Origin: Candidatus Omnitrophota bacterium | GTDB taxonomy: Bacteria > Omnitrophota > Gorgyraeia > Aquiviventales > Aquiviventaceae | DNA: 56,090 bases | Assembly (NCBI GenBank): GCA_016198905.1 | Contig: JACQHR010000036.1 | Location: 1 to 56,090 of the forward strand | Reading direction: 5' to 3' | Shown here: one piece after another, positions 16,076-33,502 of the stretch | Position numbering within the stretch: the stretch's first letter is position 1 | Layout: the number at the start of each line of letters is the position of its first letter | Notes under the pieces: generated by a model | What the model was told of the DNA's origin: nothing | What the model saw: the letters and a program-made list of their open reading frames with translations, nothing else | The model's database searches: none | Translations under genes and position numbers: made by a program

Positions 16076-17701
16076 TCAACGCGGTTGCTCGTGCACGTTC
16101 AAGGCTTGCTCGATCACGTCTTGCCGCGCCCCCGAGGGTTCCTGTTCACGCAGTCCCATCGAGGTGTGACTCGTCCCGGCGAGCTGCGGGACCGGTTCGT
16201 CAAGAATGCGCGGCGTGATAAACACCAACAACTCGCTCGAGGAATTCGAGATGTCCGAGTGCTTGAAGGCTTCCCCGATGACCGGGATCCCTGAGAGGAC
16301 CGGAACCGTCGTCCTGGTTTCTTGTTCGCTGCGATCGATGAGCCCGCCGACCACCAAGGTATCACCGCTGCGGATTCGCACCATCGTCCGAGAACTGCGC
16401 GTCTTGGGGTCCTTCGGTTTTGATTGGCCGCTCGGAGGGGTGAGATTCGACGTCACCGTCTTGGTCACCGACGGCTCGACCATCATGGTGATGTCACTGT
16501 TGTCGTTGATTTGCGGCGTCACCACCAGGACCACCCCGGTCGTGGTGCGCTCCGGCGTCTGGGTCTGTGTTCCTGTGGTCGCTTGGTTGGACGTGGTGAA
16601 ACCAATCGCTTCGTCCGTCGTCAACCGCACCACCGCGCTCTCATTGTCCAGCGTGAGCACTTTGGGTCGCGCGAGAATCTTGGTGTCTCCATCCGCTTCG
16701 ATTGCCTCGAGCACCGCCTTGAAGGATGAGGCGTCGAGCGTGCTGGCCACAAATGGAGTTTTCACAGACTTGGTATTATCCTGCACACCCGGTTGAATGC
16801 CCTCCTTAAACATATTGAAAGGAAAGCGAGTCTGCCGGGAAGTCGGTGTAAAGGTAATGAGCTGCCCTGACGTTCCAGTGCCCCACTTAATCCCAAAGTC
16901 CTTGGCCTTCGTCAGGCTCGTCTCAATCAACTCGGCATCCACCATGATTTGAGACGTGCGCACATCGAGCGCGGCTAACGCCGCTTCCAATCGCGGGAAA
17001 TTTTCCGGCACATCGGTGATGATGAGGCTGTTCGTCCGCTCATCGACCACCACGGCGCCATGGTCCGTGAGGAGCTTTCCAATGACAATATCGATGCCCA
17101 CGTCGCCCCCACCTCCGCCGCCGCCACCCCCGCCTTGCGCTTGCAGAGTCGCCTCAAATGGCGTCCGACTCCCAAAGGAGGTCGCGGTTTTCGCGAGAAT
17201 CGATTTCGACACGCGAGCATACTTCAGCTTGTAGACGCGCGTCATCGGTTCGACGGGTTTCCCCTGTTTCGCGCTCTCATCTTGCTTCGGCCTGACGATG
17301 TAGATGTCGCTGCCCGCCGGCCGCTCATATTCCAGGTTGCCGACGCGCAGGATTTGATCAAGCGCATCCATGACGGTCACATCTTCCAAGTAGAGCGTAA
17401 TGGTGGCGTTGCTGATATCGCTGCGCGCAATCACATTGATGCCGGTCTGCTGAGAGAACGCTTTGAGGACGTCTTTCAACTGCGCATTCTGAAACTCCAT
17501 GGAGACGCGCAGCTGAGACTTGGCCTCACTCTCCTCGCCTGACGCGGGCGTTGCGGTGTCAGTCAACGAGGCGCCCGACCCCATGGTGGTTGTCGCCGGA
17601 TCGCTGTCGTTCTCATAGGTGAAGCCCTGCCCGCCCCCCAGCACCATGACGACCGCCACGACGATTCCCTGCCAACTCCCGTCACGCATCCTCACCTCCA
17701 C
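16076..17701 (-). CDS. pilQ: secretin (PilQ/GspD family; STN + N3 + secretin domains)
   Basis: VSMEFQNAQLKDVL, DERTNSLII, ILARPKVLTLDN, VPVLSGIPVIGEAF, ELLVFITPRI. Confidence 0.93.
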   Translation of the reverse strand: MEVRMRDGSWQGIVVAVVMVLGGGQGFTYENDSDPATTTMGSGASLTDTATPASGEESEAKSQLRVSMEFQNAQLKDVLKAFSQQTGINVIARSDISNATITLYLEDVTVMDALDQILRVGNLEYERPAGSDIYIVRPKQDESAKQGKPVEPMTRVYKLKYARVSKSILAKTATSFGSRTPFEATLQAQGGGGGGGGGGDVGIDIVIGKLLTDHGAVVVDERTNSLIITDVPENFPRLEAALAALDVRTSQIMVDAELIETSLTKAKDFGIKWGTGTSGQLITFTPTSRQTRFPFNMFKEGIQPGVQDNTKSVKTPFVASTLDASSFKAVLEAIEADGDTKILARPKVLTLDNESAVVRLTTDEAIGFTTSNQATTGTQTQTPERTTTGVVLVVTPQINDNSDITMMVEPSVTKTVTSNLTPPSGQSKPKDPKTRSSRTMVRIRSGDTLVVGGLIDRSEQETRTTVPVLSGIPVIGEAFKHSDISNSSSELLVFITPRILDEPVPQLAGTSHTSMGLREQEPSGARQDVIEQALNVHEQPR

Positions 17702-18330
17702 TGAGCGCTTCGCGATAGTGATCGACGACCCGCATTCGCGATGGTCGAAAACTGCACGGCTGTTCCCTCAAAGTCCATGGTGATGCCGCCTCGTGCAATC
17801 GCAGTGATGACTCCGCCTCCCACGCGATCGCCAATGTAATAGACCTGCCCCTTGATGAGGACCTGCGGCCGCGGACCGCCCCAAATCAACCCTTCGATGA
17901 TGAGATCTGAGGGAGGCGTGATCTTCGGTTTGGGAGGCTCGGGCGGCGTCAGCTCCTGCGCCGTTTGCACCGGCGCGGAAGGCGGCTCGGGCAGCAGACT
18001 CTCAAACGGGTTGCGAAGATCAATCGCGGTGTAGTTGGGTGCGGCTGCCGGCGAGGCCGAGTCTGAGGAGGCATCTGCAACTTTGAGCTGATACTCCGGA
18101 TCCGAACGTTGCTGGTACGACTGGACCATCTCGCTCAACGGTCTTGACATGTTCACGCCGGCGCCGGCCACGGCGCCGGCCGAAGCGCTCTTCGGCAGCA
18201 GATTCCCCAAGAACGCCATGCCGCGCATCGGCCCGAAAAAGAACACGATGCCAAAGATTCCCAGCAGCGCCATCACCGCGCGCTGCTCAAACTTGGCTTT
18301 TTGCTCGGGATCGCTTGGAATCAACGCCAT
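17692..18330 (-). CDS. PilP-like / GspC-like pilus assembly protein
   Basis: N-terminal TM, RNPF motif, LIIEGLIWG beta domain; lies between pilO and the secretin. Confidence 0.7.
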   Translation of the reverse strand: MALIPSDPEQKAKFEQRAVMALLGIFGIVFFFGPMRGMAFLGNLLPKSASAGAVAGAGVNMSRPLSEMVQSYQQRSDPEYQLKVADASSDSASPAAAPNYTAIDLRNPFESLLPEPPSAPVQTAQELTPPEPPKPKITPPSDLIIEGLIWGGPRPQVLIKGQVYYIGDRVGGGVITAIARGGITMDFEGTAVQFSTIANAGRRSLSRSAQWR

Positions 18331-18348
18331 CACGTCATCCGCTCGTTG

Positions 18349-18867
18349 TCACTGGGTAGCGCGGCTCGGCATGGGCAGATAGAAGCTGCTCACGGCTAAT
18401 CGCACCATCGCCACGCCTTTTTGTCCAGGCATTTCGGAGAGCTCCAACCGATCCACCCGCATGAACGCTTTGCTTTGCTCGAGTTGATCGATGAAGGAAC
18501 CAAGCAGATGATAGGACGCGTTGAATTCGAGATTGACGCCCAGGCGCGTCAGTTGGGGAGAGACTTGGGGAGGATCCTGGGTCATGGTCGTCACCTCAAC
18601 ACCCGCCTGTTGAGCGAGGGCGACCACTTCCCGGGCCAGCCATGAAGAATCGGCTTCGGGTGCCAGTCGTTTGCTGCGCCGCCCCAGATCCTTGAGGAGG
18701 ACGGCGACGTCGCCGCCTGTGTTCTGGTTCGACTGTTCCTGCGCAAGCTGAGCTTCGATCAGGCGCACCGTCTGTTGCTGCGGGACATAACCGTAATTAT
18801 AGCCCACGTATCCGCCCACCGCAATTCCTATTGCACCAAGGAGAAGCATCGATTTCATGTGTTCCAC
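18349..18867 (-). CDS. pilO: type IV pilus assembly protein PilO
   Basis: TM + coiled coil + ASYHLLGSFIDQLE ferredoxin-like core. Confidence 0.82.
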   Translation of the reverse strand: MEHMKSMLLLGAIGIAVGGYVGYNYGYVPQQQTVRLIEAQLAQEQSNQNTGGDVAVLLKDLGRRSKRLAPEADSSWLAREVVALAQQAGVEVTTMTQDPPQVSPQLTRLGVNLEFNASYHLLGSFIDQLEQSKAFMRVDRLELSEMPGQKGVAMVRLAVSSFYLPMPSRATQ

Positions 18868-20608: not shown

Positions 20609-22426
20609 TCACGGTACGTTACACGTAATCGTGCTATAGCAGACCCATACCGTTGGTGTGACCTGGCCAGCCGAGACACTCGGGGCAACACAAGCTGACG
20701 CACTGACCCAAATTTGCTTCACGCATGTGTCCGTACTTGGAGCAGCCGCGGCAGGCAGCGTCGCCCATTGCGGCCTTCCAGTATCATTGATCAGCACCGT
20801 TGACCCAGTGGTCGCCGTCCCCGAACCCGCGGTCAGGGTCGCGTTGGTTACATCCAACATCCCCCCAGTATCAATCGTGAGCGTCGAACCGGTCTGAATG
20901 GAAATGCCCCCTCCGTTGAAGATCGCATTCCCTGCTTTCGACAGCACATTAAAACCGCCACTACTATCTGCATCTAGAGTATTCACAAGCCCGATAGCCT
21001 GGAGGTGGCACACTCCCGCACCAGTACACTCTGCTCCTGCCTTGGCACCGCCGGACATAGTGCCAACACCTAAGTTACCGCCTCCACCCCCGACATAGCT
21101 TGTGCTACTTCCATCCGTAGCCGTGAGATCACGACCTTGGACAAGGTTGATCGTGCTGCTCACGACTAAGGGCGAGGCTCCTCCATCGTTTCCAATCGCG
21201 CCTCGAAAATCTGACGTGCCGGTGACTTTCAAGTTGCCATTGATGGTCAGATTGCCCACCAACTCATCCAGTGTCAGTTTGTGCAGCTTCGAGTCTTGGT
21301 CTGGGTCTACGAGGTACGCTGCGGCATCCAAATCCACAAATCGCTTCCCTTTCACATCGCGGTGGGCAATGACATCTAGTGTGGCGTCGATGGATCCGAC
21401 GGTCTGAATGCTCGTATCCAAACGAGCCGCTGACGGGGTGATGACAGAAATAAAGTCCTCCGCCGTGACGCTCTTAAACTTCGCATCCCCTGTCACCTCG
21501 AGACCCCCAATCACTTTTGTATTGCCTGTGATCTCGGCCCCACGGCCCACCGTCAGCTTCCCATGAATGATCACATCATTGGTCGCTTCAAGGCTGGTCG
21601 GACTACCATTGAGGATGAGTTTCTCATCCAGCGTCACATCTTTATGAAACTCTGCCTTGCCCAGCACATCTAACACAGTCGTGTTGGCATTCGCCGCCGT
21701 GCCGATGGTTGTTTTCTCCTTGAGAGCGGTTTGGCCCATGACATCCAGGACCACGGTGCTGGCATTCGCCGCCGTACCGACGGTCGTCAGGTCCTTCAGA
21801 TTGCTTTTGCCATTCACGTCTAAGACGAGGTTGGTGTTACCCGCGAGACCGACGGTCGTCTTCTGCTCAAGTTTGGTCTCGCCGTTGGTCACCAAGAGTC
21901 CAGGGTTCGCCGCTCCTGTCCCAGTCACTTTCAACACCTGCGCGCCGGACACGCTGCTCGCGATTTCGGTGGCGTCATCGAGGAGTGTTTTGCCAAAGCG
22001 CACATGGAGCGCCTTGTTTGTCGCTGCGATGGCTTGAACGTACAATGGGGCATCTGCCGCAGCAAACGCGACACCCGACGCATGATTCTCGATGACTGCG
22101 GTGCGATTGAGCGTCGTCGGCCCATCAATGGTTAGTGCCACATAAGTCACCCCGCCAATCGGGGTTCCCTTCACCCACAGACTGCCTGTGATGGTAAGAT
22201 TGCCCAGGTTGTTTTGCGTATTGACGTCGAGTTTATCCAGCTTCGTCTGGTCATTGGGGTCAACCTTGTAGATTGTGTTATCGTAATCCTCCGCCTTCCT
22301 GAACTGGAGATCGTCATAGACTCCTCGTGGAGACGGGTAATACGTGGTGACGGTGACATCTTCGGCCCACGCCGCCCCTGCCACCACCATCATCCCCACG
22401 ACACCCCACATTCGCCAGGTCTTCAT
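20609..22426 (-). CDS. secreted beta-rich fibre-like protein, paralog 1 (EDVTVTTYYPSPRG family), putative pilus adhesin
   Basis: signal peptide ending AAWA|EDV; Gly/Thr/Val-rich beta repeats; 25-aa internal repeat; Cys-rich C-terminus. Confidence 0.75.
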   Translation of the reverse strand: MKTWRMWGVVGMMVVAGAAWAEDVTVTTYYPSPRGVYDDLQFRKAEDYDNTIYKVDPNDQTKLDKLDVNTQNNLGNLTITGSLWVKGTPIGGVTYVALTIDGPTTLNRTAVIENHASGVAFAAADAPLYVQAIAATNKALHVRFGKTLLDDATEIASSVSGAQVLKVTGTGAANPGLLVTNGETKLEQKTTVGLAGNTNLVLDVNGKSNLKDLTTVGTAANASTVVLDVMGQTALKEKTTIGTAANANTTVLDVLGKAEFHKDVTLDEKLILNGSPTSLEATNDVIIHGKLTVGRGAEITGNTKVIGGLEVTGDAKFKSVTAEDFISVITPSAARLDTSIQTVGSIDATLDVIAHRDVKGKRFVDLDAAAYLVDPDQDSKLHKLTLDELVGNLTINGNLKVTGTSDFRGAIGNDGGASPLVVSSTINLVQGRDLTATDGSSTSYVGGGGGNLGVGTMSGGAKAGAECTGAGVCHLQAIGLVNTLDADSSGGFNVLSKAGNAIFNGGGISIQTGSTLTIDTGGMLDVTNATLTAGSGTATTGSTVLINDTGRPQWATLPAAAAPSTDTCVKQIWVSASACVAPSVSAGQVTPTVWVCYSTITCNVP

Positions 22427-22448
22427 AGGAGTCACCGCCTCCTTCTTA

Positions 22449-22501
22449 CCCTCCAGCGGCACGCGCACGCGATTCGTCCACGATGGCAATCGCAGTCTCA
22501 T
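22449..22501 (-). pseudogene. relic of the pilM 5' end at the duplication junction
   Basis: 22449-22477 matches pilM 20405-20433 at 27/29 nt (TNRVRVPLEG). Confidence 0.7.
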
Positions 22502-22521
22502 TCAACACTCCACGGTTAAGG

Positions 22522-24474
22522 TCACGGGCTGAGCGTCAACAGGCAACAGGTCACACCGACTTTATGGTTGTTGTTGTCCCCGCTGCAGGTCGATGGGTTG
22601 CTCCACGTCACCGCGGTGACAACCTCGCCCCCTGCGCAACTCAGAGTTCCGTTACATGAGGGAAGAATGGTATAGCAGTTGCTGAATGTCAGCGTCGCAG
22701 ATGCGGCAGGCAGCGTCTGCCATTCCGCCTTGCTGCCATTTTGTGCAAGCACCTTCGCATTAGCGGCTGCTGTTGTACCCGGATCACCGGCCGTGAAGTT
22801 ACCATTGATGATGTTAAGCGTACTGCCGGTGTCGAATGTTGCACTCCCTCCTGTCGCCGTAAAATTAACGCCACCAGCGCTATCGAAATCCACGCTACCG
22901 CCGCCCCCACCCACCTGCAAATGGCATAGTACGCCACTACATTCAGCTCCTGCATAGGCACCGCCGGATATAGTGCCAATACCTAAGTGACCGCCACCGC
23001 CCCCGACAAAGCTTGTGCTACTTCCATCCGTAGCCACGAGATCATGACCTTGGACAAGGTTGATCGTGCTGCTCACGACTAAGGGCGAGGCTCCTCCATT
23101 GTTTCCAATCGCGCCTCGAAAATCTGAGGTGCCCGTGACGAGCAGGTCGTCATCTACCTTGACGGGAGTATTAGGGGTGCTGTTCCAAATCTTGCCTTTT
23201 ACATCCAGGTCATTCACCGTAAAATTTCCGGTGATTTCGAGATTGTTCAGCTTCGAGTCGCCGAATGGATCAACCAGAAACGTGGGATCATCAAGATCGA
23301 TGAACTGCTTGGCGGTCACATTGCCCTGCGCCACGATGCTCCCAATGGTCTGAATGCTCGTACTCAAACTTGTGGACGGCCCCACGAGGTTCACGTAGTC
23401 CTCCACCGTCAGGTTCTTAAAGTGCGCATCTCCTGTCACCGTGAGCTTCCCTAACTCCGTGTCGCCTACTACCTTGAGCCTTGCATTCAATTGTGTATCG
23501 CCGTCCACCTTCAGCTTCCCATGAATGAGCACATCATTGGTCGCTTCAAGGCTAGTTGGATTCCCATTGAGGACGAGTTTTTTATCTAACGTGACATCAT
23601 CATGAAATGCCGACTTGCCATTCACGTCCAACACGAGGCTGGAGTTATTCAGGGGACCGATGGTCGTCAGGTCCTTCAGATTGCTTTTGCCATACACCTC
23701 TAACATGAGGTTGGTGCTACCAGTGGTCGGACCGACGGTCGTCTTCTGCTCAAGTTTGGTCTCTCCGTTGGTCACCAGCAACCCGGTGCTGGCCGCACCT
23801 CCACCAGTGACCTTGAGGACTTCAGTCGCTGTGGCGTTCGTTGTCTTGTCAACCGTCGCGGCCCCGGTGATTTTCGTGAGGCCCGCGCCGATGTCGGCGG
23901 CGGTCTGGCCTGCCCCGCTGCCGATTACCTTCAGAGCCACGGTTCCCCCGCCGCTGCCAGTGACTTTGAGGACCTCAGTCGCTGAAGCATTGGTTGTCTT
24001 GTCGACCGTGGCGGCGCCGGTGATCTTGGTCAGGCCCGCGCCGATGTCGGCGGCAGTAGCGCCCGCACCGCTGCCGGTAACCTTCAAGGCTTGTGTCGCA
24101 GCAGCATTCGTCGATTTGTCGATGACCGCGCTTCCGGCCAGCGTCGTGGTCGCGTTTACCACCTTCAACCCTAACCCATACGGGAACGCAGGGACTGTGG
24201 GTTGGCTTTGGACATAGACGCTGCCGGTGATCTTGAGATTCCCTAAGTTGTTGATCGTCGTGACGTCGAGGATGTTCAACTTGCTCGTTTGATCCGGATC
24301 CACCTTGAAGACTGTGTTATCGTAATCTTCCCCTTTCCTGAACTGGATGTCATCGAACACGCCTCGTGGAGATGGATAGTACGTGGTGATCGTGACATCC
24401 TCGGCCCACGCCGCCCCCGCAACCACCATCACGCTCACGATCCCCCACATGCGCCAAGTCTTCATGAGGGTCAT
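22522..24474 (-). CDS. secreted beta-rich fibre-like protein, paralog 2 (EDVTITTYYPSPRG family), putative pilus adhesin
   Basis: same signal peptide and N-terminal motif; 51-aa (153-bp) internal repeat; six-Cys C-terminal domain. Confidence 0.78.
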   Translation of the reverse strand: MTLMKTWRMWGIVSVMVVAGAAWAEDVTITTYYPSPRGVFDDIQFRKGEDYDNTVFKVDPDQTSKLNILDVTTINNLGNLKITGSVYVQSQPTVPAFPYGLGLKVVNATTTLAGSAVIDKSTNAAATQALKVTGSGAGATAADIGAGLTKITGAATVDKTTNASATEVLKVTGSGGGTVALKVIGSGAGQTAADIGAGLTKITGAATVDKTTNATATEVLKVTGGGAASTGLLVTNGETKLEQKTTVGPTTGSTNLMLEVYGKSNLKDLTTIGPLNNSSLVLDVNGKSAFHDDVTLDKKLVLNGNPTSLEATNDVLIHGKLKVDGDTQLNARLKVVGDTELGKLTVTGDAHFKNLTVEDYVNLVGPSTSLSTSIQTIGSIVAQGNVTAKQFIDLDDPTFLVDPFGDSKLNNLEITGNFTVNDLDVKGKIWNSTPNTPVKVDDDLLVTGTSDFRGAIGNNGGASPLVVSSTINLVQGHDLVATDGSSTSFVGGGGGHLGIGTISGGAYAGAECSGVLCHLQVGGGGGSVDFDSAGGVNFTATGGSATFDTGSTLNIINGNFTAGDPGTTAAANAKVLAQNGSKAEWQTLPAASATLTFSNCYTILPSCNGTLSCAGGEVVTAVTWSNPSTCSGDNNNHKVGVTCCLLTLSP

Positions 24475-24974
24475 CGCCTCCCTTGGGCTGTGAGCGGGGC
24501 CTGTGTCCCGCTGTCGTCAAACCAGATGCTGTTGAGTTCCACGTTGTTCGCCTCGTTCGTCTCGTGCACGTCGTTGCCGGTATCCACCTTCAGGGTCATG
24601 CTGTGCAATCCGTTGGCCATCGTCATCGGCCGCATGAAGAGGAGCTTCACCGAGTGCTCGGCATTGGCTGGAACCGACTCGTCCACTCGTTGCCGGCCCA
24701 GGAGTCGGTCATCGAGCCACAGCTCGACGTCGAAACTGTTGCGCACTACCCGGTCTCCTCTGTTCTGCATAAAGACAAAGACCTTTGGAGGCTCGACCGC
24801 CGAAGGGACGATGCCCGCGGGCACGAGATCGACCCCGGAGGGCTGTGTTGGGGGCCTTGCGGTGCCATACTCCTCCGCCGCGATGCGCAACTGTCCGCTC
24901 AACAAGATAAGACCGATCACCGCGCAACTGGCACTGACCTGTCCCCATCGATATCGCATCTGTCCGCTCCTCAT
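24471..24974 (-). CDS. secreted CARDB-domain protein
   Basis: DLVP...NRG...F.V.LWLD...G.H...LKVDTGNDVHETNEANN; ATGA overlaps with both neighbours. Confidence 0.8.
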   Translation of the reverse strand: MRSGQMRYRWGQVSASCAVIGLILLSGQLRIAAEEYGTARPPTQPSGVDLVPAGIVPSAVEPPKVFVFMQNRGDRVVRNSFDVELWLDDRLLGRQRVDESVPANAEHSVKLLFMRPMTMANGLHSMTLKVDTGNDVHETNEANNVELNSIWFDDSGTQAPLTAQGRR

Positions 24975-25660
24975 GGGCACGACGCAGGGTTCGGGGCGAC
25001 GGTGTCCCCCGTGAGTCCGACCAGCAGTTTCGTATAGGCCGTGGAACCCAATCTTGTCTCTCCACGAATGGTAATGTACCCTCCAGGAGTTTTTGGATCC
25101 GGCGTTGTGATTTCGATTTTCAGCATGTTATTGTCCTCAGGAGGAGCCAGATGCGTCCCGATCGGGTCGCCTCCCAACGCCGCCGGCGACTCATCCATGT
25201 ACCGGAGCACCAATCCTGTGATCCCGAAAGCGATCTTGCTCGTGACAGGAGGACAGGGCCCTCCAATTGGAATGTTGTCGTAGAAGAGCACTTGATTGAG
25301 CAGAGGCCCGGTGTGGCTGTACTGTCTCCACGTATAATTGTTCACGTTGCCGGCAGTCCCTGCACTCGTCACGCTGGTGGGGACACGGAACATCACCTTG
25401 GCATATGGCGCTGCGGGCGGATTGTTCCCACGTTCGACTAAGACGACGCGGTCGGCATTTTTGAGCTGTTTGAGCATATGGTTCATGGCGTAGACCGCTT
25501 CCATATATTGGGTGGCGCGCCCGCGCGCTTGCTCAGCCAGAAGCACGCGCGTCACATCGGTTTGGCCTACCACGAGGATCACGATGAATCCAATCGCTGA
25601 GGCGATCAGCAGCTCGGTCATCGTGAATCCATGACGCGCAAAGGGCTTAGTTCGGCTCAT
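24971..25660 (-). CDS. minor pilin, PilW-like
   Basis: RHG|FTMTELLIASAI class III signal. Confidence 0.8.
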   Translation of the reverse strand: MSRTKPFARHGFTMTELLIASAIGFIVILVVGQTDVTRVLLAEQARGRATQYMEAVYAMNHMLKQLKNADRVVLVERGNNPPAAPYAKVMFRVPTSVTSAGTAGNVNNYTWRQYSHTGPLLNQVLFYDNIPIGGPCPPVTSKIAFGITGLVLRYMDESPAALGGDPIGTHLAPPEDNNMLKIEITTPDPKTPGGYITIRGETRLGSTAYTKLLVGLTGDTVAPNPASCP

Positions 25661-26189
25661 TCCACGTCACCGTTCCGCTCACGATGTAGTAGTCCGGCTT
25701 GCCATCCCCGTCAAGGTCAGGCCCGCTCTTGACCTCATATGTCCGCCCTGTCCCGCTATACCCCAAAATGGATGGCACGATACCGCCCGGCAGCGGCTCA
25801 GGTCTTGATCCGGCGTCAATCGGAGAAGTCGCCGGGTTTAGCGCCGCGCCTGTCGTATCAGGTTTGCACGAGTCAGTTGGCACAAGTATTGATACTGGTA
25901 GAAACCAGGCATCACCGCCTGTCTCTGCTGCCCGACGACACGCGATCTTGTTGCGCTTGTCTTCCAAGGTCTGGGTCACGTAGGTGACCGCCTCAGCTTT
26001 GCCGATCGAGCGTCCTGAGAGCCGGGCCGCCATCCCGAAGGCCATCATCGTCCCAGCGGCCACCAACGTGCCGATCACAAGCGCGAGCATGACTTCGACT
26101 AACGTCATGCCAGCCTCGAGGCGCGCGGCAACCATATAGCCGTCCTTATTCGACATTCGAGAGAGGTCTCGATTCATTAGTATTGCCAC
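25647..26189 (-). CDS. minor pilin, PilV-like (start uncertain)
   Basis: AG|MTLVEVMLALVIG signal; C-terminal V.GTVTW. Confidence 0.78.
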   Translation of the reverse strand: MAILMNRDLSRMSNKDGYMVAARLEAGMTLVEVMLALVIGTLVAAGTMMAFGMAARLSGRSIGKAEAVTYVTQTLEDKRNKIACRRAAETGGDAWFLPVSILVPTDSCKPDTTGAALNPATSPIDAGSRPEPLPGGIVPSILGYSGTGRTYEVKSGPDLDGDGKPDYYIVSGTVTWNEPN

Positions 26190-26710
26190 TTATCGAATCC
26201 AGATCCCGCACAGGCTGTAAACGGTGCGACGGTTGGGTTACCGTTATGGCACCATCCACGGTTAGCATCGATCGTCATCGCTGGATCATGTGCCGCCGAT
26301 CTGCTTCGGTCAGCGGTCGCGGTAAAACCAGTATCCCCGAATGCTACCAGTGGCGGACCAACACTAAAATCAATCGGGATGGAACCGAGATTCGGGTTAT
26401 CCATCTTGATCATCCGCCAATCCGAATTGGGACTGAATTTGGTCAGCCCCGTCTTCCACGTCCCGTTGTTAAACTGGTAGTTTCGCTCGCCGGTGTAAAT
26501 AGTCAGGAGAATGTCCTGAGCCGATTGCCAATATCCTCGCCTGATCGTCTTGATGTAGCTGGGAATCGCCATGCTCGCGAGAATGCCGACAATCACCACG
26601 GCCATCATCACTTCAGTTAGGGTAAACCCGCGCACACTTCGACGATAACGATTCGCCCGCTTCCCCATGCCCAACCAGCGCATTATCCCAATCATGCATT
26701 CCCACATCAT
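26177..26710 (-). CDS. minor pilin, PilE-like
   Basis: RG|FTLTEVMMAVVIVGILASMAIPSY; FTATA motif. Confidence 0.85.
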   Translation of the reverse strand: MMWECMIGIMRWLGMGKRANRYRRSVRGFTLTEVMMAVVIVGILASMAIPSYIKTIRRGYWQSAQDILLTIYTGERNYQFNNGTWKTGLTKFSPNSDWRMIKMDNPNLGSIPIDFSVGPPLVAFGDTGFTATADRSRSAAHDPAMTIDANRGWCHNGNPTVAPFTACAGSGFDKWQY

Positions 26711-27282
26711 TGGTAGCTCGCTTTCACGTGAATGGTATGTTGACGTGGAGCAAACGGCGGCAATGGAGGAAGTGGTGGAGGTTGTACCCCGCAGTTCGTC
26801 ACAGTGACTTCCACATAGGGATCAGTGAGATCCCCCGGCGGACCAATAATGCCGTTACCGTTAGCATCAATGAATTCAGCCGACTCCGCATCAAAACCAT
26901 TGATGGACGGATTACAGGCTTTACTCGGATCAGGAGCGCTAGGATCATGACCAAACGTGCAGTGCGATTTTCCGGGAATGATGGCGCAACTTGGAATCGA
27001 TCCAGTCGCATTATCGGGATAATTGCGGAAATCTACGAGAGGAGGTCCAGGTTTGTAGGTCATGAGTTTGTGCGCGACCAGGACATAGCCCGCCTCCGCA
27101 AGATACTGCGCTTTCGCGCGCTCTTCCATGCCCTGCGATTGTCCGGATTGACTGTTCGCAATATTCAATATGACGTAGCCGAGCACTCCCATCAGAAATC
27201 CCATGATTAAAATGATCCCGAGCGCGCTGCCGCGTTCGTTCTGCAGCGATCCTCGACGCTGTGCAACCTCTGGGCGCATCAT
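26707..27282 (-). CDS. minor pilin, PilX/GspK-like (no Glu5)
   Basis: NERG|SALGIILIMG and KAQYLAEAG; GGAG SD upstream of ATG 27282. Confidence 0.8.
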   Translation of the reverse strand: MMRPEVAQRRGSLQNERGSALGIILIMGFLMGVLGYVILNIANSQSGQSQGMEERAKAQYLAEAGYVLVAHKLMTYKPGPPLVDFRNYPDNATGSIPSCAIIPGKSHCTFGHDPSAPDPSKACNPSINGFDAESAEFIDANGNGIIGPPGDLTDPYVEVTVTNCGVQPPPLPPLPPFAPRQHTIHVKASYQ

Positions 27283-27299
27283 GCGTATCGGCTCCATCA

Positions 27300-27326
27300 A
27301 TAAAAAAACCGAACCACTGGTTCGGT
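27300..27326 (-). terminator. intrinsic terminator (riboswitch expression platform)
   Basis: ACCGAACC-AGT-GGTTCGGT followed by a U tract on the minus strand. Confidence 0.88.
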
Positions 27327-27423
27327 AGCTCAGCCATCTCACGTGTGGTCGGCAGCCCGGCTGTCTCGCGAGACCCGTAGCTTTGCGCCCTCCGCTCACG
27401 CGAAGTTTGCCCTTTCGCCAGTC
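27316..27423 (-). ncRNA. c-di-GMP-I (GEMM-I) riboswitch with duplicated 3' strand
   Basis: minus strand GGGCAAAC-TTCGC-GTGA-GCGGAG-GGCGCAAAGCTACGGGTCT-CGCG-AGACAGCCGGGCTGCCGA matches the GEMM-I consensus with a GNRA loop; sits upstream of the pilus operon. Confidence 0.9.
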
Positions 27424-27524: not shown

Positions 27525-27869
27525 TTACGAAGGACGGGTGCTGGCAATGACCCAATGAAGGTAGGGTGTGGAGCCTAAAGTGACAGGAAGCGCGATGATT
27601 TCCGGCACGTCATACGGGTGCCACTTGAGCACCGCGCGTTTCAGAGACTCAAACCGTCTCTTGGTCGTCTTGATCACGAGGAGCGTTTCGGGGCAGCGTT
27701 CGACCTTTCCCTTCCAGAAGAAAATAGATTCGACAGCGGGGATGATGTTGACGCAGGCGGCCAGATGGTGCCTGACCAAGGCGGTGCCGAGACGTCGCGC
27801 CACGGCCTTCGTCGGACACGTCACGAGCGCGACAACAATGCCAGTGGGCGCTGACGCGTGGGAGCGCAT
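27525..27869 (-). CDS. cutA: divalent-cation tolerance protein CutA
   Basis: LAACVNI, S.F.WKG, HPYDVPEIIALP. Confidence 0.95.
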   Translation of the reverse strand: MRSHASAPTGIVVALVTCPTKAVARRLGTALVRHHLAACVNIIPAVESIFFWKGKVERCPETLLVIKTTKRRFESLKRAVLKWHPYDVPEIIALPVTLGSTPYLHWVIASTRPS

Positions 27870-27887
27870 GACGTCACGGCGGACACT

Positions 27888-28088
27888 TTAGTGGCGAAGA
27901 TTGATGCGAAAGTCGTTGCCGTCTTTCCGTACCACGACATGGCCTTCACGCGCCAGCCACCCGAGACTCATCAACGCAAGTTCCCGCGACCGATCAATGC
28001 CCGTCACGACCTTCGCAAACGGCACTTCGCCATGTCCGTCAAGGTAGTGCCAAATTTCTCCCGCCACGATGCCAATCTCGGTGATCAT
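27888..28088 (-). CDS. small winged-helix protein (DUF2582-like)
   Basis: IG..AGEIWHYL...MSLGWLAREG; strong SD. Confidence 0.85.
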   Translation of the reverse strand: MITEIGIVAGEIWHYLDGHGEVPFAKVVTGIDRSRELALMSLGWLAREGHVVVRKDGNDFRINLRH

Positions 28089-28184
28089 GCGCCCCTCCTT
28101 GTTTCGTCTTTCAATATGCCATAAAACCCTGAACCATTCTCGATATTTCGTCAGTCAACGCGCGCCACTCAACTGTCGCCGGGA

Positions 28185-30317
28185 TTACTGCACGCGACTG
28201 CCGTCTTGAGGTTTTGCTTGGCGCAACGCCGTCAGCCGTTCCCGCGCGAGCTCCGCCTCCGGGATGGACTCCTCGGCGAGCTGCGCGTAGATCGCTTCTG
28301 CAGCAGCCGGTCGGTCCTGCCGTTCCAACAGTTTCGCCAGCGCCAGTTGGCTGCGCACGCGCCACGGCGGCTGCGTCACGCGCCCGTACCATTGCATCGC
28401 GCGATCCAAGTCGCTGACTTCTTCGTAGCACGAGGCGATGCGATACGCCGCTTCCTGGCTGATCGAGGGGGCGAGCTGCGCAGCGTTGTCATACCACTGG
28501 ATGGCCTCGGGGTAGGCCTGCCGCACCCGGGCCATGTCGCCCAACCGCTTGGCGAGCTTTCCCCGCTGACTTCTTGGAAGGCGGCCCGCCTCGTACCATC
28601 GTGTGAGCGCCTTTTCCATGGCGTCAGGAGCCGCTTCGCGCGTCTGCAAGTTCACGAGCAGGAGCCTGGCCTCGAAGGCTTCGTCCGTCCGCGGGGCAAA
28701 CTGAATCGCCTCCTGACATAACCGCTCTGCGGTGGGTTGGTCGCCGTCACCGAGTGCTAACACCGCGTCATAGTAGGAGGCGCGTGCCGCCGTCACCGTC
28801 CCTGCGCGCTCGCGACGCAGCCGCTCGAGCAGTCCGTGCGCCAATCCCTCCTCGCGTTGATTGAGGTAGGCGATCACGATCGCCAGTTGCGCATCATCGG
28901 CCAGTGCCGCATCGGCGCTGGAGGCCATCTGCTGGAAGACGGCCATCGCGCGCTCAGTCTGTCCGAGTTGCAGGTCGATGCGCGCGGCTTGGTACGTCGC
29001 GTAGGTGACCAACGAGGGATCCGCCGCGAGCTCCATCGCCTGTTGATACTGCGCCTGGGCCTCCGTGAGGTTGCCCAAAAACATCTGGACGTCGCCCAGG
29101 CCGCTGTACGCCGCTTGGCGAACCGTCCGCTCATCGCTGTGCGTGGCCAACTCAAAGATCGTTTTCGCTTTGGCGGCATTCCCTTCTTCCAATGCGACCG
29201 CGCCAAGCCGTAATTGGACCTTCGCGCGAGCCAACTCATCAAGCAGCGGCCAGCGCAGCATCGCATGGAGGAGCTCGTGCGCCTCATCGAGACGCTCGTC
29301 CCGACGGTACAGCTCGGCCATCGTCAGCCCGCTCTCCAACACCAAGGGATGTTTCGGGTAGCTCGAGAGGATGCGATCGAATCGGGCCAGCGCGTCCTGC
29401 TCGCGTCCCACCCGGATGAGACAACTCCCCTGCGCAAACAGCGCTTCCACGACATGCTCATCCGTCCCTTTCAAATGCAGGTAGCGCTCAAACCCATCAA
29501 TGCTCTCCTGGCAGCGGCCACGCTGATACTCGGCCCAGGCCAACCCGAACTGCGACAGACGCCCCCACCGCGACGCCTCTGCGGCCGTCAAGGCGCGCTG
29601 ATAGGCCAACATTGCCTCCTCATAACGCTTCAGCCCACTGAGGCTTTCTCCGAGATAGAACGCGGCCTGCGCAATGCCCTGCGGATCCTGCAACCGGTCG
29701 AGCAGCGGCTGCAAGATCGCCACGGCGTCGGTCCATCGGCCGAGTTGCAGGTTGCAGAGTCCCTCGAAGAGTAACGCGTCGAGCGCTTCGGGTGCTGCCG
29801 CTTGACGCACCGCGGTCTCATGAAAATAGCCCAACGCGGTCTCGAAGGCTTGTTGATGCAGGAGGACGAGTCCCAACCCTAACTGAGCCTGCGTAGCCCA
29901 CGAGGAGGCCGGATACTGCGTGAGGAGGCGCTGATAGGCTTGCTTGGCCCGCAGCATCTGAAACGCGCGCCGACTCACGTCCGCTTCCCAGAAGAGGACC
30001 TCCGGCCAAAAAACACTCGACGGTGCGAGGTGCGTTTTCAGCGAGTCGAACTGTGTGAGCGCTTCGTTGGAGCGCTGCAGCTTATCCAAACTCAACGCGA
30101 GCCATAACCAGACCCGCGGGGTTTCCGGCACATGCTGATAGTGTCCGAGGAAATTCTCCGCGAGCAAGGTCACTTGCTCAAAATCCTCGCGCAGAAACGC
30201 GCGCTGGATCGTCTGGTACCCCGGCGTCGGCTCAAGCGCGCACACGCGACTAGGCATCGCCAGTGCCATGGCGATCAGCATCGCACCGATCAGTAAGAAG
30301 CGTTGTTGATGACTCAT
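28185..30317 (-). CDS. exported tetratricopeptide-repeat protein
   Basis: signal peptide followed by many 34-aa TPR-like repeats (A.F.LG......Y..A...Y). Confidence 0.88.
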   Translation of the reverse strand: MSHQQRFLLIGAMLIAMALAMPSRVCALEPTPGYQTIQRAFLREDFEQVTLLAENFLGHYQHVPETPRVWLWLALSLDKLQRSNEALTQFDSLKTHLAPSSVFWPEVLFWEADVSRRAFQMLRAKQAYQRLLTQYPASSWATQAQLGLGLVLLHQQAFETALGYFHETAVRQAAAPEALDALLFEGLCNLQLGRWTDAVAILQPLLDRLQDPQGIAQAAFYLGESLSGLKRYEEAMLAYQRALTAAEASRWGRLSQFGLAWAEYQRGRCQESIDGFERYLHLKGTDEHVVEALFAQGSCLIRVGREQDALARFDRILSSYPKHPLVLESGLTMAELYRRDERLDEAHELLHAMLRWPLLDELARAKVQLRLGAVALEEGNAAKAKTIFELATHSDERTVRQAAYSGLGDVQMFLGNLTEAQAQYQQAMELAADPSLVTYATYQAARIDLQLGQTERAMAVFQQMASSADAALADDAQLAIVIAYLNQREEGLAHGLLERLRRERAGTVTAARASYYDAVLALGDGDQPTAERLCQEAIQFAPRTDEAFEARLLLVNLQTREAAPDAMEKALTRWYEAGRLPRSQRGKLAKRLGDMARVRQAYPEAIQWYDNAAQLAPSISQEAAYRIASCYEEVSDLDRAMQWYGRVTQPPWRVRSQLALAKLLERQDRPAAAEAIYAQLAEESIPEAELARERLTALRQAKPQDGSRVQ

Positions 30318-30370
30318 GCCTTACACATCCTCATGAACATTCAACACCGTGTGCGAGTGTCTCTCGATAC

Positions 30371-30512
30371 GGCGTGGGGCGGTGGTGAGCGGGGCCTGTC
30401 GGCCAGCGCGAGCACGGTCCCGGCGCACAGCGCCGGGTCGCGCGTCGGCCGACCGGAGCGCCGCGAACCCGCTGGGGCGAGCAAGCGTCCCCGCGCAGCG
30501 CCGCCCCACGCC
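30371..30512. repeat. GC-rich multibranch palindromic element (REP/MITE-like)
   Basis: perfect 12-bp terminal IR GGCGTGGGGCGG/CCGCCCCACGCC; internal hairpin CCCGGCGC-ACA-GCGCCGGG. Confidence 0.7.
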
Positions 30513-30538
30513 CAAAGGTTGGAACATGGCGCATCGCA

Positions 30539-33502
30539 TTACAATGAAGGCTCCTCATTCGTTCCTGCTTGGAGTGTCTCGCCCGCAGCCGGTCCTGTCA
30601 TCAGGATGCGCGCGGACCGCGTGAGTGCGCCTCGAGGTCCGCTCAGCAAGGGACGCAGAAACTGCCCGGTCCACGACGACGGTTCTGCGGCCACCACTTC
30701 GGGCGTGCCGGCCACGACCAGCCGGCCTCCGGCTTCTCCGCCTTCAGGTCCCAGGTCAATGATGTAGTCCGCCGTCTTGATGACCTCGAGGTTGTGTTCG
30801 ATCACGACGACGGTATTGCCATAATCCACCAGTTGATGTAAGACGCCAAGCAGTTTTTCAATGTCGGCCACGTGCAAGCCGGTCGTCGGCTCATCGAGCA
30901 AGTAGAGCGTTCGGCCCGTCGCCCGTCGCGAGAGCTCTTTGGCGAGCTTGATGCGCTGCGCTTCCCCGCCGGAGAGCGTCGTGGCGGATTGGCCCAGCTC
31001 CAGGTACTCGAGGCCGACCGCGTGCATGGTCTGCAAGCGTTGCGCGATCGCCGGAATGGAGGAGAACATCTCGAGCGCTTCTTCGATGGTCATCGCCAGC
31101 ACATCGGCAATCGAGCGGCCCTTGTAGGTCACGTGCAGCGTCTGGTCGTTGAATCGCTTGCCTTTGCAGACTTCGCAGCGCACGAACACATCCGGGAGAA
31201 AATGCATCTCGATGCGCTTCATGCCGTCGCCCTCGCAGGCTTCGCAGCGCCCGCCCTTCACATTGAAGCTGAAGCGGCCGGGCTTGAAGCCGCGCAGCTT
31301 CGCGCCCTGAGTCCGGCTGAACAACTCGCGGATGGGCCCGAATGCGCCGGTGTACGTCGCCGGGTTCGAGCGCGGGGTGCGCCCGATCGGCGATTGATCG
31401 ATCACGACTACTTTGTCGATGGCGTCGATCCCCGTGATCCGCTCATGTGTGCCCGGGTGTTCCTTGCTGCCGTAGAAGCGCCGCGCCAAGGCTCGATAGA
31501 GAATCTCGTCGACCAGTGTGGACTTTCCCGAGCCGGACACCCCGGTGACGCACACGAAGCAGCTAAGCGGAATGCGCACGTCGATGTGTTTCAGGTTATG
31601 CTCGGCGGCTCCCTCGATCATGAGGAACGCTTTCCCCGTGGTTTGACGACGGCGCTCCGGCACCGGGATCCAGCGTTTGCCTCTGAGGTACTGGCCGGTG
31701 ACGCTGCGTTCAGAGGCGAGAATGTCGTTGAGCGATCCGCAGGCCACCACCTCGCCGCCATGTTTGCCCGCCGCCGGCCCAAGATCGACGATGTAATTCG
31801 CGCGCCGAATCGTCGCCTCATCATGCTCGACCACAATGAGCGTATTACCTAAATCGCGCAGCCGCTCCAGCGTGTTGAGCAGCTTCTCGTTATCCCGCTG
31901 ATGCAGCCCGATCGAGGGCTCATCAAGAATGTAGAGGACTCCGACGAGCCCCGAGCCAACCTGAGTGGCGAGCCGGATGCGCTGCGCTTCCCCGCCGGAG
32001 AGACTGGCCGAGGCGCGATCGAGCGTCAGATACCCCAGCCCCACATCGAGGAGAAACTGCAGTCGCTTGCCGATCTCCTTGATGAGCGGCTCAACCACCA
32101 CCTGCTGCCGCGCACCCCATGACAGCTGCGACAGCCATCGCTGGGATGCGGTCACCGAGTCTGTGGTCACCTGGGCAATGGAGCGGCCGTCGATCAAGAC
32201 GCCTAAGCTCTCGGGCTTCAAGCGCGCGCCGGCGCACGCGGGGCACGGCAGCACGCTCATGTACTTCGTGAGCTCTTCCTTCACGTAATCCGACTCGGTA
32301 TGACGGAAGCGACGCTCCAGATTGGGAATGACCCCCTCGAAGACGCCGCCCCAGATTTCATCCGAGGAACCATAGAGAAGAGCGCGCTGCGCCTTGCGAT
32401 CCAGCGACTGAAACGGGATCTCCATGCTGATGCCGAAGTGCCGTGCGGCTTCCCGCAACAGCCGGTTGTAGTACATGATCATGTGCATGCCGCTGCGCTT
32501 CCACGGCTCAATGGCTCCGTCGCGCAACGATTTCGTCCTATCCGGCACCACGAGCTCCGGATCGATTTCCAGGCGCGTCCCTAAGCCATCGCAGGTCGGA
32601 CACGCCCCGTAAGGAGAGTTAAAGGAAAAGAGGCGCGGCGAGAGCTCTTCGAAGCTGAATCCGCACGCCGCGCACGCGTAGAGTTCGCTATATACGTGTT
32701 CCGTGTTTCGCGTTCCGCGTTCCGCGTTTTTGGAAGATGGCCGCTTGGTTTTGCTTCTCAACGCGGAACTCGGAACTTGGAACTCGGAACTGATGATGAC
32801 GATCCCCTTGCCGACTTTCAACGCGGTCTCAATCGATTCGGTGAGCCGCCCTTTCGCCTCCGCTTCGAGCGTGAGACGATCGACGACCACTTCAATGGTG
32901 TGCGCACGTTTTTTATCGAGCGCGATCGGCTCATCAAGATCACGCACGACCCTGTCGACGCGCACGCGGATAAAACCCTGCCGCTTGATGTCGCGGAAGA
33001 CCTCGACGTATTCGCCCTTGCGCCCTCGAATGAGTGGGGCCAAAATCGTCAACTCGCTCTTGGCCGGCAGCTCAAGCACCCGGGCGACGATTTCCTGGGC
33101 CGACTGTTGGCTGATCGGCACCCGGCAGGTCGGACAGTGCGGCTGGCCGGCTCGCGCAAACAGCACGCGCAGGTAGTCGTAGATCTCCGTTTGTGTCGCC
33201 ACCGTCGAGCGCGGGTTGCTCCCGGCGGTGCGCTGCTCGATCGCAATGGCCGGGGAGAGCCCTTCGATGGAATCGACGTCGGGTTTCTCGAGCCGCTCGA
33301 GAAACTGCCGCGCGTAGGCGGAGAGGCTTTCGACGTAGCGGCGCTGGCCTTCCGCATACAACGTATCAAAGGCGAGTGACGATTTGCCGGAACCCGACAG
33401 CCCCGTAATAACGATCAGGGTGTTTCTGGGTAACGTCAGGTCAATAGCTTTAAGATTATGCTCGCGGGCTGCGCGGATGATAATTGGTTGATCGGTGCTC
33501 AT
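30539..33502 (-). CDS. uvrA: excinuclease ABC subunit A
   Basis: two ABC cassettes ([18 protein letters not shown]), LSGGEAQRI twice, Zn fingers. Confidence 0.98.
32696..32792. repeat. inverted pair of heptamer arrays inserted in frame in uvrA
   Basis: GTGTTCC GTGTTTC GCGTTCC GCGTTCC GCGTTTT ... GGAACTC GGAACTT GGAACTC GGAACTG. Confidence 0.85.

Follow-up and report, generated by a model that had tools for sequence, protein, structure and literature searches.

A multigene family of predicted Sec-exported fibre-like proteins with a shared N-terminal module and its tie to a type IV pilus-like operon of Omnitrophota

Introduction

Why does an operon for a type IV pilus-like machine carry, between its minor pilin genes and its assembly genes, two long genes for proteins that are not pilins? 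The question is raised by a stretch of 56,090 nucleotides (nt) from a Candidatus Omnitrophota bacterium (GenBank assembly GCA_016198905.1, contig JACQHR010000036.1, positions 1 to 56,090 of the forward strand; the genome assembly comprises 1.41 Mb in 42 contigs and is 80% complete). This whole stretch is termed the window. The interval 20609-24474 holds a tandem pair of open reading frames (ORFs) on the minus strand, which we call fibre A and fibre B. A preliminary description, made from the DNA letters, had seen in them candidate pilus-tip adhesins in the place of PilY1.

Omnitrophota are widespread, uncultured and ultra-small bacteria, presumed to live on other cells, and a role in attachment has been proposed for their type IV pili (PMC10066038). 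We find that fibres A and B belong to a large and otherwise diverse family of this phylum which shares a near-invariant stretch of 20 residues behind a signal peptide. Our reading, to which we assign a probability of about 45%, is that the fibres are Sec-exported adhesins which dock by this N-terminal module on the minor-pilin tip of the machine and are retained there.

The two fibre genes

22522..24465, minus strand: fibre A, 647 residues; Sec signal, TYYPSPRG module, beta-rich stalk, Cys-rich tip
20609..22426, minus strand: fibre B, 605 residues from the ATG at 22426; paralogue of A with a different tip
24403..24465, minus strand: predicted signal peptide of A (MKTWRMWGIVSVMVVAGAAWA), with an A-x-A site
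22364..22426, minus strand: predicted signal peptide of B, located by pattern script
24343..24402, minus strand: N-terminal module of mature A (EDVTITTYYPSPRGVFDDIQ), the sole part matched in relatives
22304..22363, minus strand: N-terminal module of mature B (EDVTVTTYYPSPRGVYDDLQ), located by pattern script and family consensus

The longest ORF for fibre B spans 20609-22501; within it the true start is most likely the ATG at 22426, because AAGGAGG lies 8 nt upstream and the protein would then share the start MKTWRMWG with A. Fibre A is also present in the protein collection as a 647-residue entry, and pieces assembled from four DNA runs of one groundwater study match the window identically through both fibre genes.

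The two proteins align with 57% identity. Their DNA is related as a mosaic, with 78% identity over the 5' 261 nt and 90% identity over a block of 220 nt (21021-21240 against 22934-23153); pairwise DNA comparison found no similarity between the tip regions. One metagenomic fragment, P0004 (121 residues), has a 25-residue extension like that upstream of fibre B together with an N-terminus nearer to that of fibre A, a mixture which may mean that the two paralogues have recombined in a closely related strain.

The N-terminal module

Both fibres start with a signal of the form MKTWRMWG...AAWA, recovered by pattern script, and continue with EDVT(I/V)TTYYPSPRGV(F/Y)DD(I/L)Q; the AAWA end and the module are as the preliminary description had them. 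Our definition of the family is an A-x-A signal and, behind it, E-[DE]-x-T-x-T-T-Y-Y-P-[SA]-P-x-G-x-Y in the first 45 residues or so, a combination that A and B both possess.

No full-length relative of the fibres emerged when 1.84 billion representative proteins were searched exhaustively with a profile. The search returned 101 matches at E<=1e-3, which fall into two classes, the second of which is considered with the stalk. In the first class only the N-terminus is matched and the remainder of the proteins (41-669 residues) is unrelated; all of these N-terminal matches carry a YYP[SA]P-type motif or a close variant of it. Of 103 collected proteins, 79 have an A-x-A signal and, after it, [YFWH][YFW]P[SATG]P at a distance of about 29 residues from the start.

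Pooling the search matches with 57 ORFs from related loci gave 134 non-redundant sequences. Alanine stands before the glutamate at position -3 in 73% of them and at -1 in 92%, and the consensus E(94%)-[DE]-[VIL]-T(96%)-[LVI]-T(88%)-T(99%)-Y(97%)-Y(100%)-P(100%) then continues with S(92%)-P(99%)-R(90%)-G(97%)-V(94%)-Y(97%)-x-E-L(86%)-R(75%). Twelve positions reach at least 90% identity in proteins that are otherwise unrelated. The pattern in A and B is more than chance, because the module recurs in all 134 proteins and a genome search with the first 85 residues finds the internal copies of the stalk motif again (E 5e-4 and 0.08).

The hydrophobic residues of the module alternate as in a beta-strand (V-T-L-T-T-Y-Y). 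An AlphaFold2 model of residues 22-110 of fibre A, built from a 75-row alignment, has no secondary structure (predicted local distance difference test, pLDDT, 67.2; predicted template modelling score, pTM, 0.29). Since the module is near-invariant in proteins that are otherwise unrelated and has no fold of its own in the model, we regard it as a shared address tag: a short peptide that would lie right behind the signal-peptidase site.

A strand-like peptide that is foldless alone might also serve a separate polymer, its N-terminal strand being used for donor-strand exchange as in chaperone-usher or TasA-type fibres. Such assembly calls for a common acceptor groove, however, and the bodies and tips of the family are unrelated; chaperone or usher genes were not found nearby. 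We give this explanation a very small chance.

Variants of the module differ in having R or F/Y after P-[SA]-P. Low-complexity variants (YYPAP[FY]G) also occur among the representative matches. In the ESM Atlas the nearest neighbours of residues 1-100 of fibre A are short hypothetical clusters labelled Minisyncoccota (score 0.93, a lead only), and the module may extend to bacteria of the Candidate Phyla Radiation.

Stalk and tips

24277..24327, minus strand: first motif of A, D.D...F.VDP...SKL; residues 47-63
23248..23298, minus strand: second motif of A (DLDDPTFLVDPFGDSKL); residues 390-406; common to PilV-like pilins and giant S74 proteins
22238..22288, minus strand: first motif of B; residues 47-63
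21284..21334, minus strand: second motif of B; residues 365-381
23804..24086, minus strand: tandem duplication in the stalk of A; 153 nt (51 residues), 1.8 copies, 84% matches; not in B
22702..22731, minus strand: hinge KAEWQTLPAA of A, where the similarity of A and B stops; the slot protein of another genus (L019) has KSAWPTL at the equivalent place
20747..20776, minus strand: hinge RPQWATLPAA of B, located by pattern script
22525..22701, minus strand: tip of A, 59 residues with 6 Cys; 45% identical to the tip of the L019 fibre
20612..20746, minus strand: tip of B, 45 residues with 4 Cys; unrelated to the tip of A

The motif D.[DN]...[YF].VDP...[ST]KL occurs exactly twice in each fibre, and the two hinges are followed by Cys-rich tips that do not align with each other; on all of these points the earlier account was accurate. 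Stalk length seems to change by duplication, to judge from the repeat in A.

The idea that the tips are exchangeable is borne out by the L019 protein. The A tip recurs in it at 45% identity over 73 residues and its N-terminus is 52% identical to that of A over 87 residues, while its stalk is unrelated. Across family members from related loci the tips are highly diverse. Tips thus appear to behave as exchangeable modules, and stalks and tips together appear as a mosaic.

The second class of matches from the profile search involves the second internal motif. It comprises giant proteins of 1344-4374 residues that end in Peptidase_S74 and genuine N_methyl type IV pilins, one of which has Shufflon_N over the matching part. 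In a pairwise comparison residues 250-426 of fibre A match residues 274-478 of this N_methyl plus Shufflon_N pilin with E 3e-11, so that the likeness to shufflon PilV, which the preliminary description had put forward, holds at the sequence level. The fusion of the D.DD..Y.VDP.G.S.LN stalk to genuine N_methyl type IV pilins supports a link of the fibres to pili by a Rosetta-stone argument. A further type IV pilin, P0028 (395 residues), bears four tandem D.DN..Y..DPS..SE.N copies and a Cys-rich tip; the motif is therefore a repeatable stalk unit in pilus adhesins. The pilins in which the stalk of the window fibres also occurs are presumably monomeric, and trimerisation is plausible for those family members that bear S74.

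The fibres share with shufflon PilV a beta-helical stalk with this motif and small variable C-terminal tips, but they differ from it in having neither a prepilin leader nor a pilin alpha-1 helix. N_methyl and TIGR02532 were not found in them, and a predicted cleavable Sec signal with its A-x-A site is followed instead by the polar start EDVT. Shufflon_N (PF04917) was not detected in the fibres at E<=0.01, the homology to the Shufflon_N pilin being local to stalk and motif. Their tips vary by paralogues and recombination in place of a shufflon; invertible repeats were looked for only in the DNA comparison of A and B.

Domain searches of 75 family sequences found Peptidase_S74 in 9, Gp53-like_C in 1 and DUF5649 in 1 (E 6e-4) and nothing else, the counts being lower bounds as many of the sequences are fragmentary. 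Among ten full-length locus proteins, two carry S74 (both in the pilus slot), one carries Gly_rich_2 and seven have no domain; the family member P0015 also bears S74. The recognisable domains of the family, S74, Gp53-like_C and Gly_rich_2, are those of receptor-binding phage fibres, which speaks for our reading of the fibres as adhesins. The likeness to phage fibres that had been suggested for A and B thus stands for their relatives and not, as far as S74 and PHROG matches go, for the window fibres themselves.

These domains raise the question of whether A and B are tail fibres of a prophage, a tailocin or another phage-derived element that lies in the pilus locus by chance. The whole-fibre neighbours in the ESM Atlas are also phage clusters (score 0.83), a lead only from a language model. 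Yet the fibres carry a Sec signal peptide and no phage genes are found among their recurrent neighbours. The pattern TYYPSP[RE]G was not found in 2.9 million viral contigs, and the search of 50,697 phage records gave one weak match only, with no PHROG match. We consider such an origin of the locus very improbable.

A sequence search of the PDB gave a peptidoglycan-recognition protein (E 0.008) as its sole match, which we take as chance.

The pilus operon

26707..27399, minus strand: PilX/GspK-like protein, ORF of 230 residues; no family match; ERGSALGI followed by a hydrophobic helix
26177..26710, minus strand: minor pilin, FimU/GspH-like, 177 residues; N_methyl, GspG/GspH models
25647..26189, minus strand: minor pilin, PilV/GspI-like, 180 residues; N_methyl, weak gspI; orthologues aligned
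24971..25660, minus strand: minor pilin, PilW/GspJ-like (J-like pilin), 229 residues; N_methyl; orthologues aligned
24471..24980, minus strand: CARDB-domain protein, 169 residues, between the J-like pilin and fibre A; Pfam CARDB E 2.9e-7; N-terminal hydrophobic segment
18877..20562, minus strand: PilM-PilN fusion (pilMN), 561 residues, 46 nt 3' of fibre B; PilM_2 E 4.8e-15, pilM TIGR01175 E 4.7e-24
18349..18867, minus strand: PilO/GspM-like protein, from family models
17692..18333, minus strand: PilP/GspC-like protein (weak), from family models
16076..17701, minus strand: secretin; Secretin E 9.8e-40; PilQ 222.3 against GspD 205.0 bits
14320..16038, minus strand: extension ATPase with an MshEN cyclic di-GMP-binding domain; T2SSE E 3.5e-135; PilB 612.8 against GspE 594.4 bits
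13070..14320, minus strand: platform protein PilC/GspF; GspF 370.5 against PilC 303.8 bits
12543..13046, minus strand: major pilin candidate, 167 residues; N_methyl E 4.6e-8; two Cys near the C-terminus

The operon genes share the strand of the fibres and the gaps between them are mostly short or overlapping. Our proposal of a pilus partnership rests in the first place on this arrangement, because both fibre genes lie on the same strand and with short gaps between the minor pilin and CARDB genes on one side and pilMN-O-P-secretin-ATPase-pilC-pilin on the other. With the PilW/GspJ-like minor pilin before them and pilMN after them, 'PilY1 slot' is a fair label for their position.

The CARDB gene also follows the J-like pilin in two other genera (L019:539-961; L072:2229-2651). 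It is missing from most linked loci, in which the fibre gene lies directly 3' of the J-like pilin. The PilX-like protein probably starts downstream of 27308, because the 5' extension of its ORF contains a hairpin (27326-27308, minus strand) which, with its T-run, resembles a terminator.

The module might alternatively be a secretion signal that is read by the minor (pseudo)pilin tip, the fibre being released or passed to the cell surface and not retained. The operon evidence fits this equally well, and the machine scores nearly equally as a type II secretion system and as a type IVa pilus. Operon-encoded substrates with a mature N-terminal signal are known for type IVb pili from the available portion of one study (PMC9565799). 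With up to 20 paralogues in a genome, many cargoes of one exporter would also be a better match than one tip. Set against this, the pair of Cys at the C-terminus of the major pilin candidate is a feature of pilus-forming type IVa pilins; the stalk is common to PilV-type pilins of pilus tips; and a long fibre with a small tip would resemble a tethered adhesin more than a soluble factor. We judge secretion without retention to be distinctly unlikely.

The T2SSE ATPase family has ten matches in this genome, two of them adjacent on contig C6 and two on C16. With a second secretin on C28, the set of type IV filament machines (contigs C6, C16, C38, C37, C3, C33 and C28) is unusually rich for the genome size.

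Distribution of the family and linkage to the operon

A 24-row profile of the module (E<=1e-6) matches 103 of 251 sampled Omnitrophota genomes and 91 of the 197 that are of high quality. The number of copies is two in the genome of the window and reaches 20 and 18 in a pair of genomes that belong to one genus.

The pattern TYYPSP[RE]GV, which stands for one module variant only, was found at 44 loci in 17 assemblies when one genome per species was searched (185,579 species). These assemblies are titled Omnitrophota/Omnitrophica (11), 'Planctomycetales' metagenome-assembled genomes (5) and 'bacterium' (1). To judge linkage, the pilus proteins of the window were compared with these loci by tblastn. 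At ten of the 44, which come from 10 of the 17 assemblies, the J-like pilin and pilMN have a module-bearing gene between them.

The picture is similar among the 34 other genomes from the family of the window. An initial search matched the module in 23 of them; in 11 of these 23 a copy shares the strand of the orthologous pilMN and lies no more than about 7 kb upstream of it. One further genome (G004) has a module gene directly 3' of the J-like pilin, and another (G027) has a slot copy that the initial module search had missed. Thus no fewer than 13 of the 34 carry a family gene within the orthologous pilus operon, a set that probably overlaps with the 17 assemblies and consists of kin that are not independent.

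More weight attaches to two arrangements outside this family. In a genome of another family (G035) a module variant (LQLTTWYPAPRGDY) is encoded upstream of the PilX-like gene and adjoins cutA, a gene which flanks the operon in the window as well. A third family (G201) has a copy at the operon's 3' end, 1.3 kb past the gene for the major pilin. One operon therefore has three insertion positions in three families. Clustering of 638 ORFs around the loci gave no recurrent neighbour except the pilus operon and its flanks, namely uvrA, a gene for a tetratricopeptide repeat (TPR) protein and cutA. That embedding in the operon recurs, with no other recurrent neighbour, is our second reason for proposing a pilus partnership.

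Several observations tell against the docking of these fibres on the pilus tip. Most family members are dispersed and not beside pilus genes. Two expanded assemblies, in which not one of 13 and 11 loci is linked, account for most of the 34 unlinked loci. Of five genomes from other families, four showed neither a pilus gene nor a pilin-like motif within about 8 kb. The slot is empty in G008, G011, G016 and G018, where the J-like pilin runs directly into pilMN; the pilus therefore does not need a fibre gene in cis. For G018, which is 90% complete, the module search found no match at all. The fibres themselves have no Pfam (E<=0.01), NCBIfam or PHROG match, and the Pfam scan found Peptidase_S74 in neither of them. 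The AlphaFold2 model of full-length fibre A is unusable (mean pLDDT 33.6, pTM 0.32). Nor is the machine assignable to type IVa pili over type II secretion, all model scores being below the curated cut-offs, and other machines of the genome could be the partner, since it also has another secretin and some nine ATPase genes of T2SSE type.

The preliminary interpretation survives in part. Its slot, the PilV likeness, the phage-fibre likeness (through S74 domains in relatives) and the variable tips are upheld, and so is the linkage to pilus loci, in the 10 assemblies and at least 13 genomes counted above; but four slots are empty, and the module, most copies of which are dispersed, is not peculiar to this place. 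It identifies a multigene family of the whole phylum, the core copies of which lie in one pilus operon.

The dispersed copies bring to mind pilus-independent surface fibres like the mosaic adhesive trimer (MAT) fibres of Bdellovibrio, the N-domain partner of which is still unidentified according to the part of the report available (PMC10769870). The module would then serve to anchor the fibre on a component of the outer membrane or surface, or to address it to another exporter, and the operon copies would reflect co-regulation. In architecture, and in architecture only, the likeness to MAT proteins as described in that part is close: a Sec signal, a conserved N-terminal part directly after it, a beta-rich meandering fibre, swapped C-terminal tips, subfamilies with and without S74, and about 20 genes. 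The dispersal of most copies, the empty slots and the occurrence of the family in 103 of 251 genomes all suit this explanation. Against it, the same operon has been entered at three places in three families and no alternative neighbour recurs. Furthermore, a foldless peptide of 20 residues would make a poor stand-alone anchor compared with the MAT N-domain, which is folded and about 130 residues long; the constant part of the fibres comprises about 20 residues (up to about 60 in a subset). MAT genes inside a pilus operon are not reported in the text available (PMC10769870). On balance we hold pilus-independent fibres to be unlikely.

Dispersed members occur in tandem arrays of two or three genes (L031:9980-13787; L033; L034; L055), and members of such arrays end in a Gly_rich_2 domain (E 7.8e-13) with a ...G.VVISW C-terminus. 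In G027 a secreted Cys-rich protein of 826 residues (L074:3-2480, minus strand) is encoded 3' of the slot fibre, which is short (175 residues, TYYPSPKG); the larger gene reaches the limit of the sequence that was analysed.

A proposed docking model

We return to the docking of the fibres on the minor-pilin tip. In our model A and B would be non-pilin fibre adhesins exported by the Sec pathway. Signal peptidase I would cut the precursor after A-x-A, and cleavage would expose the near-invariant 20-residue N-terminus E-[DE]-[VIL]-T-x-T-T-Y-Y-P-S-P-R-G-V-Y-x-E-L-R, which would direct the fibre to the co-encoded type IV pilus-like machine and dock it there. Binding would take place in the periplasm, where the module might attach to the priming complex of minor pilins, most plausibly its PilX/GspK-like cap, by beta-strand addition. 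Carried on the tip of the pilus as it grows, the fibre would leave the cell by way of the secretin and turn its variable C-terminal tip towards the surface of a host or prey.

Complex prediction is counted neither way. A complex of the module (residues 22-85) with three pilins, J-, I- and PilX-like, gave scores of 0.40, 0.41 and 0.32; two unrelated partners gave 0.00 and 0.00, and a control in which the J-like pilin was replaced gave 0.35. A comparison of the C-terminal strand of the PilX-like protein with the module variants at nine loci showed no clear co-variation.

In support of such docking, we note two precedents. Firstly, a 12-residue terminal plug of PilC/PilY1 docks on the K-type minor pilin PilK by beta-strand augmentation, as given in the accessible part of a preprint (bioRxiv 10.64898/2026.09.18.752573). 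Like PilY1, the fibres are predicted to be Sec-exported non-pilins, are encoded after minor pilin genes and combine a variable, putatively adhesive part with a constant, putative docking part. They differ in lacking the beta-propeller (no match to PF05567 in Pfam at E<=0.01), their body being a beta-rich fibre. The constant part is N-terminal in the fibres and C-terminal in PilY1, there are many paralogues per genome, and the slot can be empty, so that the fibre is probably dispensable for pilus assembly. A genome-wide search for PF05567 gave no match, but its control matched in 0 of 14 genomes.

Secondly, the flexible mature N-terminus of TcpF and CofJ, which are encoded in pilus operons, is bound by the tip minor pilin; the signal motifs are clade-specific and rich in aromatic residues (PMC9565799, in the portion available). 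The likeness extends to a gene in the pilus operon and to a Sec signal followed by a mature N-terminus which, in TcpF and CofJ according to the same portion, is flexible and has critical aromatic residues. The differences are considerable. Those systems are of type IVb and use one large trimeric minor pilin (TcpB or CofB), whereas there are four small genes of H/I/J/K type here, with an ATPase that scores as PilB/GspE and a secretin that scores as PilQ/GspD, which does not place the machine in type IVb. Their cargo is globular and released, whereas ours is fibre-like and multigene. The motifs FxxxYxSxS, SxGGAFT and YGF are also dissimilar to TTYYPSPRGVY. By analogy, then, the fibres may combine the features of tip partners of PilY1 and TcpF type with a repertoire of MAT type.

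A third system invites comparison in its use of variable tips. In the Kil Tad pilus of Myxococcus one machine works with alternative minor-pilin tips that have variable domains for prey recognition (PMC12075869, available text). There the tips are complexes of minor pilins, whereas the variable element here is a non-pilin fibre. The docking reading might be widened in this direction: one pilus machine would be armed with a genome-wide set of interchangeable phage-type fibres which share a 20-residue plug for the minor-pilin cap. We put forward this wider form with considerable doubt.

Significance

The family offers a concrete candidate for host recognition, with a large and fast-changing set of fibres, swapped tips, one address peptide and a tie to one pilus machine. 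If docking is correct, it would represent a third route by which pilus tips are functionalised, besides modular pilins and PilY1, and it would link receptor-binding proteins of phage type to pili. A cell with up to 20 paralogues could then load varied tips on one retractile pilus for varied hosts or prey, and the same mechanism could be the missing route of export and anchoring for MAT-like fibres of other predatory bacteria. Being so short, the module lends itself to direct study without a culture, by assays of peptide-pilin binding or by crystals of a fusion, the route taken for the PilY1 plug.

Our literature searches found no description of such fibres. The string YYPSPRG did not occur, and co-mention of 'minor pilin' and 'endosialidase' was unrelated. 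The accessible text of two Omnitrophota genome papers makes no mention of such fibres.

Features upstream of the operon

A promoter-like site lies at 27491-27462; the scan for promoters and terminators gave site counts no higher than in shuffled sequence. Upstream of the operon, the block of uvrA, the TPR protein gene and cutA (27525-33502) is kept in 10-11 related assemblies and in another family (L071).

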